Shown here: positions 301-14,067 of the stretch, piece by piece | Numbering within the stretch: the stretch's first letter is position 1 | Layout: every line of letters starts with the position of its first letter | DNA from: Promethearchaeia archaeon | Lineage (GTDB): Archaea > Asgardarchaeota > Lokiarchaeia > Sigyniarchaeales > SOKP01 | Length of the DNA stretch: 14,121 nt | Direction: 5' to 3' | NCBI GenBank assembly: GCA_046497275.1 | Contig: JAWOFX010000152.1 | Coordinates: 1 to 14,121, forward strand | Notes under the pieces: generated by a model | What the model was told of the DNA's origin: nothing | The model's database searches: none | The model's input: only the letters and a program-made list of their open reading frames with translations | Translations under genes and position numbers: made by a program

Positions 301-306
301 TGATTT

Positions 307-1173
307 TTATTCATAAGTTTTATCAATTTCATTTATATACTTAAGACAGATGTTTAGAAAATCTTTTAAAACCTTTTTATCTATATTTTCAGGAATATTT
401 TCCGAAGAATGCCAATTTACAGCTTTATTTTTATTTTTTTCTACTCCAAAAAGTGCGGTTGCTTTATACCCATTTTCTATATACCTAACAACATCACATG
501 CCCGAATTTTGAGTTTATCTGTTCTAAAGTCCAAGAAATTCGGATCCTCCTTTCTTAGCCTATTAATTACAGACGTTATTTGTTCATTCATTTCTTTATC
601 ATAAACAATCCCATGCATATCTTTCTCAACTAATAGTATTGCTTCAGCAGCACCGCAACATTCAAGAATTAAATTATATGAATTATCTAAATAACCTCTT
701 TTTCCAATTTTCTCAACAAATGCTCTTGCTCCTTTATCACCAACCTCTTCACTGCCTTGTGAACATATCCATATCTCAATGTTTTGAGGTCGATGCTCAG
801 ATAAATATTTCCCTATACCTGCGGCCACAGCTGTAACTGCTAAATTATCATTAGCCCCTAAAACAACTTTCTTTCCTAAAAAGCCTTTAACTAATAAAAT
901 AAAGAATGGATAGAGAAGAAATAGAGAAGAAAAGTAGATATAATCAAGAATACTTATGGAAAAGATTAACCACTTAAATAATATAAAACCATTCTGAAAC
1001 ATTGAAATCCCAATAAATTTCCATAATGATATTATAAAAGTAAAAATAAGGAAAGCAATACCTATTATGGCAATTAAATATCGCAATTTTTCATTCATAC
1101 TAGCTATATTCATTTCTTTAGCACTATCTGTATGACCATCTTTATCTTCCTTAGCCGTTATTAGAATGATGCG
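307..1173. repeat. Diverged direct repeat, copy 1 (partner 5174..6019)
   Basis: Manual alignment. For example 421-480 vs 5288-5347 differ at 7 of 60 nt, all synonymous. Shared sequence ends at AATGATGCG (1165-1173 vs 6011-6019). Confidence 0.9.
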
Positions 1174-1375: not shown

Positions 1376-1408
1376 TCCAATTCTGTAGGGCCACTTTCCA
1401 ATTCTGTA
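1376..1408. promoter_or_regulatory. 12-bp direct repeat TCCAATTCTGTA x2 (period 21 bp) just upstream of a TATA-like TTTAAAA (1413-1419)
   Basis: Exact copies at 1376-1387 and 1397-1408, about 100-130 nt upstream of the corrinoid gene ATG. The regulatory role is inferred. Confidence 0.4.
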
Positions 1409-1504
1409 AATCTTTAAAAATCTTAACTTATAATTTAAGTATATGTATGAAAAAAAAGTATTGAAAAAAAAACTAAAATTAAAGATATAGGATTTTGAGA
1501 ATTT

Positions 1505-2146
1505 ATGACAGATGAAGATATAATAAAAAAATTTAAAGAAGCTATTATAGATATGGACTTAGAAACTGCAAAAAATGCATGTGAAAATGCCCTAAATCAA
1601 GGAATTAAACCATTTGATATCATAAAGGATGGAATTGGAAGTGCAGTAAAAAAAGTAGGTGATTTATTTGAAGCTAAAGAGTATTTCCTGACAGAGCTCA
1701 TAATGTCAGGAGAAATAATCACACAAATTATGCAAATTCTAAAACCATACATCAAAAGTGATGGTAAAGCAAAAGCAAAGGTTATTCTAGGTACGGCTAA
1801 AGGTGATATGCATGATATTGGTAAAAATATCGTAAGAAACTTTATGCAAGCGGAAGGATTCGAAGTAATTGATTTAGGAGTAGATGTTTCTACAGATAGA
1901 TTTATTGAAGCGATGCGTGTGGAAAAACCACAAATTCTAGCAATCTCAGTTTTAATATCAGCAAGCATGCCCGAAGTAGAAAAAGTCATGAAAGCTCTTA
2001 ATAAAGAAGGGCTTAGAGAAAAAGTAAAAGTAGTAATAGGAGGTGCTCCTATTACGCAACAATTTGTATGTGATATTGGTGCTGATGGATATGCTAATGA
2101 TGCTATTGATGGTATAAACATTTGTAAAAGGTGGGCTCAAGAATGA
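1505..2146 (+). CDS. Corrinoid (cobalamin-binding) methyl-carrier protein, MtaC/MttC/MtbC-like, 213 aa
   Basis: N-terminal four-helix cap (GIKPFDII...VGDLFEAKEYFLTELIMSG) and B12-binding Rossmann domain with DxHxxG (GDMHDIGKNIV), VIDLGVDV, ISVL and VIGGAP. Confidence 0.95.
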   Translation: MTDEDIIKKFKEAIIDMDLETAKNACENALNQGIKPFDIIKDGIGSAVKKVGDLFEAKEYFLTELIMSGEIITQIMQILKPYIKSDGKAKAKVILGTAKGDMHDIGKNIVRNFMQAEGFEVIDLGVDVSTDRFIEAMRVEKPQILAISVLISASMPEVEKVMKALNKEGLREKVKVVIGGAPITQQFVCDIGADGYANDAIDGINICKRWAQE

Positions 2147-3288
2147 ATCCTAAAGAAAGATTGATGGCAGTTTTACGCCGTGAAGAGCCAGACCACATCC
2201 CTTTTACATTATATGCAGAAACCCTAAAATTAGTGGGCCTAGCGATATATGAACCTTGGCGAAAGCTCTTAGACCAGGGGCTCAGTCTTTTTGCTGCATT
2301 GGCAGTTCAGACACACAAAGTAAAATGTCCAAATGCATCTATGGATATCATACATCATTATAAAACACAAACAAGCTGGTCTCCTGTTGATTTAATGATA
2401 AGTATGAATAAACCACATGAGATATCAGGTGAGATTAAAACCCCTATTGGCACAGATAAGTTTTTTGCAGTGATGGAGTCTATGGATTTATCTGAAATGC
2501 TTCCTTGGTTCCCGGAGGATGGATTCTTTATCAAAACCCTTGAAGATTATGAGATATTTACATATTTAATTGAAGATACTGAATATACTCCTTATTATGA
2601 TGATGTTAATGAATTCCAGATGATAATTGGAAATTATGGTATTGTTCCAACTTTCGTTCCGAAGAGTCCCTTTCAATCGATGATAATGTTACTGGGACCT
2701 CATAGACTGGCTATTGATTATTATACACACAGAAAAGAATTTAATGAACTTTATAACGCAATCTACAAGAAGGAGTTAGAAGTATATAAAATTGCTGCGG
2801 AATCACCAGCCGAGGTTATTTGGGGGCCAGATAATGTGACTGGCCTTATCACTAGCCCTAAATTCTTTAAGGATTATAGTTTAAAGTTTTATAATGAAGT
2901 TGCAGATATATTTCATAAACATGATAAAATTTATGTTGTTCACATGGATGGTGAACTAAAATGCTTAGCAGACCTTATAGCGGAAACCAGAATAGACGCG
3001 ATTGAAAGTTTTACACCACCTCCAATTGGAGATTTAACTATAAAAGAGGCTAAAGAAAAATGGAAAGATAAAGTAATATGGTCAAATTTTCCAGAACCTG
3101 TATGTTTACAAGGGCAAAGAGAGGTAAAGAAGACAACCAAGAAGATGTTAAAGGAAGCGGCTCCGGGAAATAACTTTATATTAGGTATATCTGAAGGATT
3201 TCCTTCCTTTATGCACATGCTCTCATCTGTTCCAAATATTCTTAAAACAATAAACAAATTCGGTAAATATCCAATTGCTAAAGAATAA
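2143..3288 (+). CDS. UroD/MtaA-CmuA (URO-D/CIMS-like fold) family protein, probable corrinoid-dependent methyltransferase, 381 aa
   Basis: MNPKERLMAVLRREEPDHIPF N-terminus, WGPDN, VVHMDG, IDAIESF, KEAKEKW and FILGISEG are typical of this family. ATG 2143 overlaps the corrinoid TGA (ATGA at 2143-2146), so 2143 is preferred over the track start at 2131. Confidence 0.88.
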   Translation: MNPKERLMAVLRREEPDHIPFTLYAETLKLVGLAIYEPWRKLLDQGLSLFAALAVQTHKVKCPNASMDIIHHYKTQTSWSPVDLMISMNKPHEISGEIKTPIGTDKFFAVMESMDLSEMLPWFPEDGFFIKTLEDYEIFTYLIEDTEYTPYYDDVNEFQMIIGNYGIVPTFVPKSPFQSMIMLLGPHRLAIDYYTHRKEFNELYNAIYKKELEVYKIAAESPAEVIWGPDNVTGLITSPKFFKDYSLKFYNEVADIFHKHDKIYVVHMDGELKCLADLIAETRIDAIESFTPPPIGDLTIKEAKEKWKDKVIWSNFPEPVCLQGQREVKKTTKKMLKEAAPGNNFILGISEGFPSFMHMLSSVPNILKTINKFGKYPIAKE

Positions 3289-3300
3289 ATTTGCTTTGCA

Positions 3301-3311
3301 TTTTTTTTTTT
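3301..3311 (+). terminator. Oligo-T tract (T11), candidate archaeal intrinsic terminator
   Basis: 11 consecutive T beginning 13 nt after the methyltransferase stop codon. Confidence 0.55.
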
Positions 3312-3410
3312 AGTATTTCCTATAATTATAACAAAATGAGATAGTTCTATTAATACCAAAATGATTTGCTTTTTGAAAAAAAAAATAAAAATTTAGAGAT
3401 TTATGATATT

Positions 3411-5029
3411 ATGTCAGATTCTAAGGAATAATATATCCTGGCAATTGATCATGGTACATCGGGCCCCAAGAGCGCGATTGTTTCTACAAAAGGAAAGGTA
3501 ATTGATTGGGTTTTCAAGGAAGTTCCTCTTCATATGCCAGAGCCAGGAGCCGCAGAACAAGATCCAGATGATTGGTGGAATGGTATTGTAGAGGGAGTTA
3601 TTAAAATGATGTCGTCTAGCAAAGTAAGCAAGGATGATATCGTGGGTATCTGTAATATAAGTCAATGGAGCGGAACTATTCCTGTTGATAAAAAGGGGAA
3701 GAACCTCATGAATTGTATTATATGGATGGAACACGTAGAGCAGAACAAATTAATAGATTTCACAAGGGTTTACTTCAAGTTTCTGGCTATAATCTTTTCA
3801 AGATATTAAAATGGCTTAAGATAACCGGTGGAGGGCCAACTTTATCCGGGAAGGACTCTATTGCTCATATAATGTGGTTAAAGGAAAAACATCCAGATAT
3901 TTATAATGATACATATAAATTTCTCGAACCCCAAGATTGGATAATTTTTAAATTAACAGGGAAGTATGCTACATCAGAGGCAACAGCACACTTACATTGG
4001 TTAACTGATATACAAGATATTAACAATATTCACTATTCAAAGAAATTAATTAAAAAAATCAAAATACATGCAGATAAATTACCAGAGTTAAAGAAGACAA
4101 CTGATGTACTTGCTACTTTAACGCCTAAAGTAGCTAAGCAATTAGGTTTAAATCCTAATACTCCAGTAATTATGGGAGCCCCAGATTTACATTCTGCGGC
4201 AATTGGTTCTGGTGCTGTAAAGGATTATGAAGCACACTTTTGCATTGGAACCTCTGATTGGCTCATATGTCATGTACCTTTTAAAAAAACTGATATTGTA
4301 ACACAAGTAGCAAGTGCGCCCTCGGGAATTCCAGGAAGATATGTCACTATTAATGAACAAGAGATTGCGGGTGGAGCATTAAGCTATCTCCGAGATAATA
4401 TCTTATATCATAAGGATGAATTGCTTGCAGAAGAGCATGTACCCGATGTTTATAAAATATTTGATAAAATTATAGAAAAAACTCCACCGGGCTCTAATGG
4501 GCTTATTTTTACACCTTGGTTGTTCGGAGAGCGTAGCCCTGTAGATGACCATACTGTAAGAGGAGGATTATATAATATTAAATTAAATACTACGAGAGAA
4601 CATTTAATCCGTGCTGTATTTGAAGGTGTGGCATATAATGTTAAATGGCTCCTATTAGCAGTAGAAAAGTTCATCAAGAAAAGACTAAAGAAGGAAAAAC
4701 CAGAACTGATTGAGGATGGAAAAATTATACCCGCGCTTACAATTATAGGTGGGGGAGCCAATAATAAGATCTGGTGTCAAATCTTTGCAGATGTAATGGA
4801 TCGTAGGATTAAACAGATTAAAGACCCTATTCAAGTAAATGCAAATGGTGCCGCTTTTATGGCCTCTGTTGCTCTTGGATATATAAAGTGGAATGAAATT
4901 GCTGACATTGTAGAATATGCAAACATTTTCGAACCTAATCCCGAAAATAGGGAAATGTATGACAAACACTTCAGCGAGTTTAAAAATATATATAAATCTA
5001 TGGGTAAGGTGTATAAGCGCTTAAATTGA
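3411..5029 (+). pseudogene. FGGY-family carbohydrate kinase (xylulokinase-like), interrupted
   Basis: ATG 3411 reads MSDSKE, then TAA 3429-3431, then YILAIDHGTSG...EQDPDDWW...SQWSGTIPVD...CIIWM. A 1-nt deletion near 3730 (TGG ATG GA- ACA CGT) breaks the W-M-D-T-R motif. The other frame continues intact through TPWLFGERSP, RAVFEGVA and GGGANNKIWCQIFADV to TGA 5027-5029. Confidence 0.88.
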
Positions 5030-5154
5030 TCTTTTTTCTTTTTCCATCAATTGGATGTATAATCGCTGTTTTATTTCTCAGATCCTTCGATCTTTATGGA
5101 GAGAAACTCAAAAAAATGAGAAAAAAGCTTGAAGAATATCCAGAATTATTTTAA
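5026..5154 (+). other. 42-codon hydrophobic ORF: remnant of a GPH/MFS sugar transporter C-terminus, or a small membrane protein
   Basis: TTG 5026-5028 overlaps the kinase stop (TTGA). Translation MIFFLFPSIGCIIAVLFLRSFDLYGEKLKKMRKKLEEYPELF, stop TAA 5152-5154: one transmembrane segment plus a basic helical tail. Confidence 0.45.
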
Positions 5155-5173
5155 TTCTTTTTTTTATTATTTT

Positions 5174-6430
5174 TTAATTGTACTTTTTATCAATTGTATT
5201 AATAAAGCTTAGACAAATATTCAAGAAATCTTTCAGAACTTTTTTATCTAAGTTCTCAGGTATATCTTCTGAAGAGTGCCAATTTACTGCCTTGTTTTTA
5301 TTCTTTTCTACTCCAAAAAGAGCTGTTGCTTTGTACCCATTTTCTATATATCTAACAACATCACAAGCACCAATTTTAAGATTATCAGTTCTAAAATCGA
5401 GAAAATTAGATTCATTTTCCTTAAGCTCACTAATAATTTTCTTTAGTAGTTCATTCATCTCCTTATCATAAACAATCCCATGCATATCTTTTTCTACTAA
5501 CAATATTGCCTTAGCAGCCCCACAACATTCTAGAATTAGGTTATAACAGTTATCCAAATAGCCCAATTCACCATATTTCTCAACAAATACTCTTGCTCCT
5601 TTATCACCGACCTCCTCACTTCCTTGTGAACATATCCATATCTCAACATTTCGAGGACGATGCTCAGATAAGTATTTTCCTATACCTGCAGCCACAGCGG
5701 TTCCCGCTAAATTATCATTTGCTCCCAAGACAATTTTTTTTCCTAAAAAACCCTTAACCAATAGAATGAAAAAGGGATAGAGAATCAAAATAGAAGAGAA
5801 ATATATATAATCGAGAATACTTATTGAAAAGATTGTCCACTGAAAGAGTATAAAACCTTGTTGAAAAATTAACACTCCAATAAATTTCCATAATGATATT
5901 ACGATGCTAACAATAATGAAAGCAACACCTACTCTCCCAATAAGGTATCGCGATTTTTCGTTCATACTAGCTATGTTCATTTCTTTAGCACTATCTGTAT
6001 GACCTTCTATAATGATGCGCCATTTTATTTCATTTGTTGGCTTAATTATACCAAATACATTGCTAGAAGTTTTTTTCTTAAATAAAAACCAAATCCATTC
6101 TTTCATCAATATGAGTTCAGCAATTAAAACAAATAAAGCTAAAAAAATTAAAACAGCTGTAAAAATTGGGAAAGGAAAAATTAATGGTACGAATAATGGA
6201 GAAATCCCTGCGAGAATCCCAGCAACTTTCACTAATCCTTGGGGATATAATGCTGGTCTTGTTTCAAATGTATCGATAGTAGTCTCATCACAATAATTAT
6301 CGAACTCACTTTTTATCCATTTATTCGCCGCCTTTTCTGCTTCACTGCAAGAATATCTTGGTCCAAATTTCTCACATATCTCTTCGATAAAATTATACAT
6401 ATATTCTGTTAGTGATTTATCAATTTCCAT
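5174..6430 (-). CDS. Membrane-embedded M28-family zinc metallopeptidase (aminopeptidase-like), 418 aa
   Basis: GPRYSCSEAE N-terminus and the co-catalytic Zn ligand set GHTD, GANDN, GSEE, LILE and NWHS, plus two hydrophobic insertions. SD-like GAGGT lies on the minus strand upstream of the ATG. Confidence 0.88.
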   Translation of the reverse strand: MEIDKSLTEYMYNFIEEICEKFGPRYSCSEAEKAANKWIKSEFDNYCDETTIDTFETRPALYPQGLVKVAGILAGISPLFVPLIFPFPIFTAVLIFLALFVLIAELILMKEWIWFLFKKKTSSNVFGIIKPTNEIKWRIIIEGHTDSAKEMNIASMNEKSRYLIGRVGVAFIIVSIVISLWKFIGVLIFQQGFILFQWTIFSISILDYIYFSSILILYPFFILLVKGFLGKKIVLGANDNLAGTAVAAGIGKYLSEHRPRNVEIWICSQGSEEVGDKGARVFVEKYGELGYLDNCYNLILECCGAAKAILLVEKDMHGIVYDKEMNELLKKIISELKENESNFLDFRTDNLKIGACDVVRYIENGYKATALFGVEKNKNKAVNWHSSEDIPENLDKKVLKDFLNICLSFINTIDKKYN

Positions 6431-12687: not shown

Positions 12688-14067
12688 ATGTATCTGAAGC
12701 AAATTATTAATAATTGGAAAAATCCAGAATTATTTGAAAAAAAAATATCAATAGATAAAAATAATATTCTGAAACTCATAGCAGCAGCTCATTGGGCTCC
12801 TTCTGCTGAAAATCAACAAGTTTGGAAATTTTTAGTAGTTGATAAGAGGAAGATTAAGGAGATTGTTAAAGAAGCGGTTAATAAACAAGATCCCAGATTA
12901 AGCGCGACTAAGCATAAAATTGAAAAACCAATATTAAATGCAAAATTTGTTTTTAGTACTGAAAATTTTGACGCATTAAAAGATAAATATAAAGATTTTA
13001 TTGAAGATTCTCATGAAAATGATATAAGGTGTGCAGAAACAGCTTCTCTTTTTATTATTTATATCCACTCGAAAAAATTTTTAGGAAATACATTTGGAGC
13101 GAGTGAAATTGGAGCTGCAGTGATTAATACGATTATCGAATCATATAACTTAGGATATAATTGCAGATGGATTAGGAATTTTGATAGAAAATATCTTATA
13201 GAAAATCTTAACATTCCTGATAACTATATAATTAATTCAATTCTAGCTGTTGGGAGGGAGAGAGAAAGCGAAAACCTTCTGGAAATTGATAAAAAAGACC
13301 TTAATGATTTTTTCTATATTAACATGTGGGAAAATATTGGTGATTTTTCAAATTATCAAAATCAACAAGATTTTAATGAATATGATGTAGAAGCTGTTGA
13401 CGCAATTCTTGACAGACGTTCTATTAGGGATTTTAATGAAGAAAAAAATATTCCCCGGGGTATTAAATATGAATTAATGAAAGCTGCAATAATGGTTCCC
13501 CTTACAATTTCTAAACCATATATAAAAATCATAATGTTAGAGGATTCAGATAAGATTCAACAAATAGCTAACAATTCTAAAATAGTAATTAGAAGACAAA
13601 AACATGTTCAACAAGTTCCACTAATATATGTATTAGCCTATGATTGTTCTAATAATTCAGCCGCTTTTTACTCTGAGGGTGATACTGGAGCTATAATTCA
13701 GAACATTCTTTTAAGAGCTCATTCCTTAGGTATCGGTTCATGTTGGATTGGTGCATTTAACCGTGAAATGACTAAGAACATATTAAATATTCCCGAATAT
13801 TGGCACATCCCGACCTTAGCGGTTCTAGGATATCCAAATGATTATCCGCCTCCAACTCCTCGAAAAGATTTAGGAAAGATTTGTTATTATAATAAATGGA
13901 AAAATCGGATTAAAAAACGAAAAAGAAGCCTAATGCCTTCCTCACACTTTTTAAGTATTCTCTTTCGCAGAATGAGAAACGGAGAACAAAAATCAATTTT
14001 AAGAGAGCGAAAAGTTGGACAAATAAAAAATATACCAGAATTTCAAAATTTAAAAGAATCTGAATAA
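12688..14067 (+). CDS. Tandem two-domain nitroreductase-family flavoprotein, 459 aa
   Basis: Domain 1: AAHWAPSAENQQVWKFLVV and GAAVINTIIESYNLG. Domain 2: AILDRRSIRDF, DTGAIIQNILLRAHSLGIGSCWIGAF and LAVLGYP...PRK. Confidence 0.9.
   Translation: MYLKQIINNWKNPELFEKKISIDKNNILKLIAAAHWAPSAENQQVWKFLVVDKRKIKEIVKEAVNKQDPRLSATKHKIEKPILNAKFVFSTENFDALKDKYKDFIEDSHENDIRCAETASLFIIYIHSKKFLGNTFGASEIGAAVINTIIESYNLGYNCRWIRNFDRKYLIENLNIPDNYIINSILAVGRERESENLLEIDKKDLNDFFYINMWENIGDFSNYQNQQDFNEYDVEAVDAILDRRSIRDFNEEKNIPRGIKYELMKAAIMVPLTISKPYIKIIMLEDSDKIQQIANNSKIVIRRQKHVQQVPLIYVLAYDCSNNSAAFYSEGDTGAIIQNILLRAHSLGIGSCWIGAFNREMTKNILNIPEYWHIPTLAVLGYPNDYPPPTPRKDLGKICYYNKWKNRIKKRKRSLMPSSHFLSILFRRMRNGEQKSILRERKVGQIKNIPEFQNLKESE

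Follow-up and report, generated by a model that had tools for sequence, protein, structure and literature searches.

The window, the whole stretch of 14,121 nucleotides analysed here, corresponds to contig C96 of a Promethearchaeia archaeon and carries a pair of overlapping genes for a corrinoid protein and a methyltransferase (Table 1). The corrinoid protein has the architecture of a cap domain followed by a Rossmann (B12-binding) domain, and its TIGR02370 score is 177 bits, under the cut-off of 215. As claimed in an earlier note on this DNA, the two genes are coupled through an ATGA, in which the corrinoid-protein stop is fused to the methyltransferase start. The same 4-nt overlap was seen again in orthologues, and its recurrence favours the ATG at 2143 as the start codon over the listed GTG at 2131. 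The note had also placed an oligo-T terminator directly after the pair. The T run is present and also follows the cassette in a genome of the same genus (G183), but its role as a terminator is only plausible, as runs of eight or more T within 40 nt of the stop occur in 158 of the 2372 ORFs of the genome (6.7%). Sigma-70 and hairpin-terminator scans of the window, both unsuited to archaea, gave results at chance level.

Table 1. Positions of genes, motifs and candidate signals in the window.
Feature	Position	Strand	Remark
Portable cassette, extent	1379..3350	.	only long block common to same-genus genome G183, 97.6% identity
Corrinoid (B12-binding) protein, 213 aa, MttC/MtgC/MtaC type	1505..2146	+	PF02607 + PF02310
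DMHDIG cobalamin-binding motif (DxHxxG, residues 101-106)	1805..1822	+	
ATGA stop/start overlap, translational coupling	2143..2146	+	recurs in orthologues
UroD-superfamily TIM-barrel methyltransferase, 381 aa, H-D-E-E clade	2143..3288	+	PF01208 E 7e-14
D230-N231, end of strand preceding His strand	2830..2835	+	
H267-x-D269 in HMDG (residues 267-270, 2941-2952)	2941..2949	+	equivalent to MtaA His240-x-Cys242
E288, fourth conserved acid	3004..3006	+	aligned with MtaA Ser261
E351 in GISEG (residues 348-352, 3184-3198)	3193..3195	+	equivalent to MtaA Cys319
T11 run, candidate archaeal terminator	3301..3311	+	13 nt past methyltransferase stop

Identity with G183 is confined to 1125-1227 and to the cassette itself, and the flanks of the cassette differ not only between these two genomes but in nearly every lineage. 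Upstream of the cassette, the window has a 151-bp insertion relative to G183 (1228-1378), of which there is no second genomic copy. The cassette lies between a 5'-truncated M28 peptidase duplicate and a xylulokinase pseudogene. The truncated duplicate (304-1144, minus strand) has 81% nucleotide identity to 5171-6011 (minus strand), in the region of the gene for the membrane M28 peptidase (5174-6430), and its break coincides with the start of the cassette's upstream region. The xylulokinase-like FGGY gene (3411-5029, plus strand) is interrupted by an in-frame stop (TAA, 3429-3431) and shifted out of frame near 3725-3735, and an intact paralogue of 64% identity is found on contig C186. A link between the cassette and a sugar kinase was rejected because the neighbouring gene is a pseudogene, an intact copy exists elsewhere and the same-genus genome has other flanks. 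The neighbours of the cassette are uninformative about its substrate. Elsewhere in the window, a short intergenic repeat (5017-5179) recurs at both ends of contig C172, and a tandem two-domain nitroreductase is encoded at 12688-14067 (plus strand) with a weak BluB match (58 bits against a cut-off of 150).

Fold, putative metal-site residues and phylogeny of the methyltransferase

The methyltransferase scored 52 bits against PF01208, for which the gathering score is 23.9, and is therefore a member of the UroD superfamily, with a TIM barrel of the UroD/MetE type. Its closest named homologues come from Promethearchaeota/Lokiarchaeota, Hodarchaeota and Helarchaeota, which identifies the host as a Lokiarchaeon, and the label on homologues in public databases is uroporphyrinogen decarboxylase. 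A single-sequence PDB search returned nothing relevant, and profiles were required. The AF2/AlphaFold model (pLDDT 94.9) fits UroD and MtaA (PDB 4AY7) equally, with Z of 22-23 and rmsd of 3.6-3.7 over about 295 residues; for MtaA, the values are Z 22.3 and rmsd 3.7 for 296 aligned residues at about 14% structural identity. Identity as HemE was rejected, since the RQAGR motif is absent from the sequence, TIGR01464 gives no match and the gene is coupled to a B12 carrier. Identity as a coenzyme M (CoM) methyltransferase was rejected as well. The best NCBIfam match is PRK06252, and the scores against the CoM methyltransferase families NF040654, NF041608 and NF004889 are 17, 21 and 39 bits, all below the respective cut-offs of 400, 600 and 244, whereas a true MtaA, used as a control, reached 513 bits against NF040654. 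TIGR01463 gave no match at E<=0.1.

His240, Cys242 and Cys319 of MtaA are taken here to be its zinc ligands, numbered as in the 4AY7 sequence. The 4AY7 profile, hhalign against MtaA plus Mlp proteins, and MAFFT all agree in aligning H267 with His240, D269 with Cys242 and E351 with Cys319. A shifted C-terminal register, in which APGN would match APGC of MtaA, was obtained in one hhalign comparison against near-identical MtaA sequences only. It is contradicted by the three alignments and by the model, in which beta-8 (345-349) pins E351 to the end of the strand, and was therefore rejected. The earlier note had read HMDG and GISEG as occupying the ligand positions, with neither the His-x-Cys...Cys of CoM methyltransferases nor RQAGR present, and these observations hold. 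However, its set of three residues overlooked a fourth, E288.

Among 149 representatives at 50% identity, H267 is kept in 147 and D269 in 140, and the position of E351 is E or D in 146 of 147. E or D likewise occupies the position of E288 in 143 of the 149, in 78/78 homologues and in 119/119 of the fusion proteins described below. The representatives share a median of 29% identity with the query, and 133 of the 149 have the full H-D-[E/D]-[E/D] set, so that the exchange of Cys for carboxylates is conserved across relatives. N231 is kept in 77 of 78 homologues, 131 of 148 representatives and all 119 fusions; D230-N231 aligns with the DD of OdmB, and N231 is likely a second-shell residue or a substrate contact. 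The three Cys residues of the enzyme (62, 274 and 321) are not conserved, and there are therefore no substitute Cys ligands evident from elsewhere in the protein, a possibility the earlier note had raised against itself. Together, the His and the three acidic residues would form, at the C-terminal opening of the barrel, a putative divalent-metal site suited to an O or N ligand rather than a thiolate.

Phylogenetic trees were built with M. mazei-type MtaA, Acetobacterium malicum orthologues of OdmB and VdmB as proxies, Mlp proteins, HemE, the paralogues from the same genome and a single proxy for the MtvB/CdmB clade. The query family comes out as a single, long-stemmed clade, with SH-aLRT support of 100 in one tree and 100/99 in another; its members had been collected for their similarity to the query, and its coherence is thus partly by construction. 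None of the tested proxies of characterised enzymes (MtaA, OdmB, VdmB, HemE) falls inside the H-D-[E/D]-[E/D] clade. A forced grouping with MtaA was disfavoured (AU p=0.018), and the A. malicum OdmB/VdmB proxies form a clade of their own (100/99) that excludes the query. The MtvB/CdmB-clade proxy is a single long branch, placed as a weak sister of the query clade (90/29), and the motif of MtvB, MtoB and CdmB differs from that of the query. The phylogeny suggested in the earlier note thus returns a separate, well-supported clade that groups with neither CoM methyltransferases nor UroD. A profile search collected 1,002 clusters (50% identity, E<=1e-30), possibly including some neighbours of the clade, which ranges over Asgard archaea, Bathyarchaeia, Bacillota and Desulfobacterota. 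The genome contains a second clade member (H-D-E-D; contig C74, 4548-5675), which was missed by the PF01208 genome search and has no carrier adjacent. Its orthologues are found in about 25 Lokiarchaeia genomes, often in operons with PfkB, BKACE, PIG-L and GHMP-kinase genes.

Loss of the Cys ligands is in itself the normal state of methyltransferases I. OdmB, a characterised vanillate O-demethylase, has H-S-D at the site (PMC13222342 Suppl. Data 3), MtvB, MtoB and CdmB are without any His-x-Cys, and CmuA and MecE retain HxC..C (PMC13222342). Zinc is found in VdmB and OdmB and is absent from MtvB and CdmB, the latter having a hydrophobic, metal-free cavity (PMC13222342). Since HxD is found in OdmB and HxC is missing from MtvB, MtoB and CdmB, the Cys loss points to a known role as methyltransferase I. 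HxD also occurs in 5 of the 12 other PF01208 paralogues of this genome, and on its own was rejected as a mark of novelty. The uncharacterised methyl-transfer chemistry proposed earlier is thus overstated. At the positions of E288 and E351, OdmB has Gln and Ser, so that the four-residue set is specific to the query group; what is distinctive in the sequences is the set H267/D269/E288/E351 and the clade marked by it. Clades of methyltransferase I that lack characterisation are a recognised gap in the UroD superfamily (PMC13222342).

Several known systems share the superfamily with the query. OdmB and VdmB (Acetobacterium dehalogenans, Desulfitobacterium), MtvB (Moorella) and MtoB (Methermicoccus, Archaeoglobus) act with a cognate corrinoid protein, an activase and a second methyltransferase directed to a pterin. 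OdmB resembles the query in its H-x-D and in an acidic pair at the positions of D230 and N231, whereas MtvB and MtoB are without the site His. Their operons cluster the second methyltransferase and the activase; the query cassette has two genes only. MtaA (PDB 4AY7), MtbA, MtsA and the Mlp proteins share fold, metal-site positions and pairing with a corrinoid protein, but MtaA, MtbA and MtsA have His-Cys-Cys where the query has His-Asp-Glu and a further Glu. The UroD fold is also common to CmuA, MecE and CdmB (PDB 9RUI). CmuA is a methyltransferase-corrinoid protein (MT-CP) fusion, like bacterial members of the query clade, while CdmB differs in its metal-free cavity, with His and acids absent. 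HemE has the fold and PF01208 in common with the query, which lacks RQAGR and TIGR01464.

Association with a corrinoid carrier and partner genes

A close orthologue was found in 10 of the 301 genomes searched, these 10 being Asgard genomes of one family, and each of them has the corrinoid gene directly upstream; an upstream carrier is also present in 5/5 assembled loci, down to 42% identity. In a deltaproteobacterial relative, the carrier is downstream of the methyltransferase. A search for longer proteins gave 302 matches, the best 119 of which, at about 636 aa, were examined. The order is MT-CP in 118 of these, the N/H/D/acid/D signature is kept in all 119, and the fusions fall inside the query clade. 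A 626-aa fusion cluster was also matched at TM 0.85 in an Atlas fold search. The fusions of about 636 aa in Desulfobacterota, with their CmuA-like order, are annotated solely as corrinoid proteins.

A complex of the carrier and the methyltransferase was predicted with a score of 0.61, compared to 0.00 for the best control; the mark is reached by 58 of 80 solved pairs and 2 of 110 mismatched pairs, and the score may reflect likeness to solved carrier/methyltransferase complexes. Between runs, at least 90% of the contacts are the same, with partner pLDDT of at least 83. In the predicted interface, the carrier cap domain (17-19, 58-70) sits on methyltransferase residues 186-195 and 234-241. In a sample of 401 Bacillota genomes, 16 carry the clade, and every one of these encodes RACE as well as a stand-alone corrinoid protein; RACE overall occurs in 216 of the 401, and the genomes are kin and not independent. 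Adjacency, fusions and the predicted complex support the notion that the methyltransferase works with a corrinoid protein.

Neither a second methyltransferase nor an activase was found inside the window, as the earlier note had stated, and the search was extended to the genome (3.85 Mb, 98.9% complete). One RACE/AcsV-type activase is encoded on contig C45 (PF14574 E 1e-90, AcsV-like), and two MtrH-family (PF02007) genes on contigs C172 and C160 are unlinked to the cassette and score below equivalog cut-offs, with 247 against 287 bits for the MtrH-like protein. A pterin-binding match on contig C127 resembles DHPS by its N-terminal motif and is presumably not the second methyltransferase. ACS beta is present, along with an MCH fragment at a contig end, and MCR was not found in the 98.9%-complete genome. 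In Methermicoccus, the methyl group on the carrier is transferred to H4F/H4MPT, rather than to CoM, by the MtrH homologue MtoA (PMC8630106). The description of the pair as self-contained is accurate genetically but not biochemically, with the activase and a candidate second methyltransferase encoded in trans. The genome holds about 14 UroD-fold paralogues (with HxC, HxD and HxE sites), 4 MttB, three stand-alone carriers and the one activase; because three carriers stand for so many methyltransferases, the carrier of the cassette may be shared. A cluster on contig C65 (24155-28987) combines two non-pyrrolysine MttB genes with a corrinoid protein and a UroD-fold protein that is divergent but keeps HxC..C, and is a candidate quaternary-amine demethylase. 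A pyrrolysine reading of a TAG in an MttB match was rejected, the TAG being the stop of the upstream gene.

Proposed function and alternative explanations

The gene pair probably encodes a methyltransferase I and its cognate corrinoid protein, the substrate-specific half of a corrinoid-dependent demethylase comparable to the O-demethylase systems of acetogens and Methermicoccus, and standing outside the MtaA/MtbA, HemE and OdmB/VdmB families. From the fold, motif, gene coupling, clade and partner genes, we infer the following steps. At the expense of ATP, the activase on C45 would bring the cobalt of the corrinoid protein from Co(II) to Co(I), and the carrier cap domain would then dock onto the barrel. 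H267, D269, E288 and E351 would hold a divalent metal, either Zn or a harder ion such as Mn, Fe or Mg, and this metal would bind and polarise the heteroatom of an R-X-CH3 donor, for which an O-methyl ether is the most likely candidate. SN2 attack by Co(I) would take the methyl group and release R-XH. The MtrH/MtgA/MtoA-type methyltransferase on C172 would finally pass the methyl to H4MPT or H4F, and thus into the Wood-Ljungdahl pathway. As a two-gene unit, the pair is a minimal system open to direct assay. Identifying its donor would extend the methyl sources known for archaea of anaerobic sediments, would test whether a Cys-free metal site can activate alkyl ethers, and would correct the common mis-annotation as uroporphyrinogen decarboxylase.

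The methyl group could also move in the opposite direction, as in a methyltransferase II, from a methyl-Co(III)-carrier charged by methyl-H4MPT to a non-thiol acceptor (hydroxyl, amine or metalloid) in biosynthesis or detoxification. The reactions of O-demethylase methyltransferases are reversible, the cassette is a two-gene mobile unit with no transporter or conserved catabolic neighbour, and gene context is unable to fix the direction of transfer. However, relatives of the enzyme lie in catabolic sugar loci with importers, and a dedicated carrier or an MT-CP fusion typically goes with a first enzyme of defined substrate specificity, as in CmuA. This reverse role is considered unlikely.

Methylation of a thiol (CoM, methylthiol or homocysteine, as by MtaA or MtsA) with an unusual ligand set would agree with the MtaA fold (Z 22.3) and with PRK06252 as best match, but both Cys ligands are replaced with no other conserved Cys, and the low family scores, the AU result and the failure to find MCR make it quite improbable. 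Slightly less probable still is a CdmB-like scaffold that binds no metal and acts on a small electrophile, for instance a methyl halide. CdmB homologues are found in Sigynarchaeales (PMC13222342), and the MtvB/CdmB-clade proxy is the weak sister described above, yet CdmB, with its hydrophobic, metal-free cavity, lacks the His and the acids, and four polar residues are near-invariant in the query clade. Least probable of all is an enzyme independent of B12, either a metal-dependent enzyme acting on sugars or a UroD of the haem pathway, that lies beside a corrinoid gene by chance. It would suit the database label and the location of most members outside the query subclade, in sugar loci with no adjacent corrinoid gene, but not the conserved overlap, the fusions, the predicted complex, the 16/16 co-occurrence with RACE and carrier, or the lack of RQAGR and TIGR01464.

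Genomic context of relatives and candidate methyl donors

For the demethylase reading, loci of relatives were compared for indications of the methyl donor. Carrier-coupled loci of the Asgard subclade have no conserved sugar, aromatic or transporter neighbour. Most clade members that have no carrier next to them are found among carbohydrate genes. Among Bacillota, 9 of 16 loci contain a glycoside hydrolase, sugar kinase or sugar dehydrogenase, a raw count that includes several related loci, four of the nine having one gene order in common; the genes include GH78, GH35, GH38, GH20, GH13, an FGGY kinase and mannitol dehydrogenase. Other relatives adjoin GH36, GH4 with MttB, and GH65, and a second Lokiarchaeal subclade adjoins PfkB, GHMP kinase, PIG-L and a sugar MFS transporter. 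The nearest such relatives of the query subclade, a placement with weak support, adjoin GH4 and GH36 genes.

The presence of relatives in sugar loci makes methylated sugars or O-methyl cyclitols the leading class of donor, a tentative assignment. Methoxylated aromatics are a good deal less likely, and N-methyl compounds are less likely again. In the open-access literature, no paper was found describing corrinoid-dependent sugar demethylation. We speculate that the H-D-E-[E/D] clade may represent widespread B12-dependent demethylases of methylated sugars or O-methyl cyclitols, with a His/tri-carboxylate metal site activating the alkyl ether and with the Lokiarchaeon copy feeding the Wood-Ljungdahl pathway, a broad proposal that is held slightly more loosely than the donor class. 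A repeated gene set of GH4, MttB, a UroD-fold protein and DUF6785 was observed in the Bathyarchaeota genome GCA_018396495.1.
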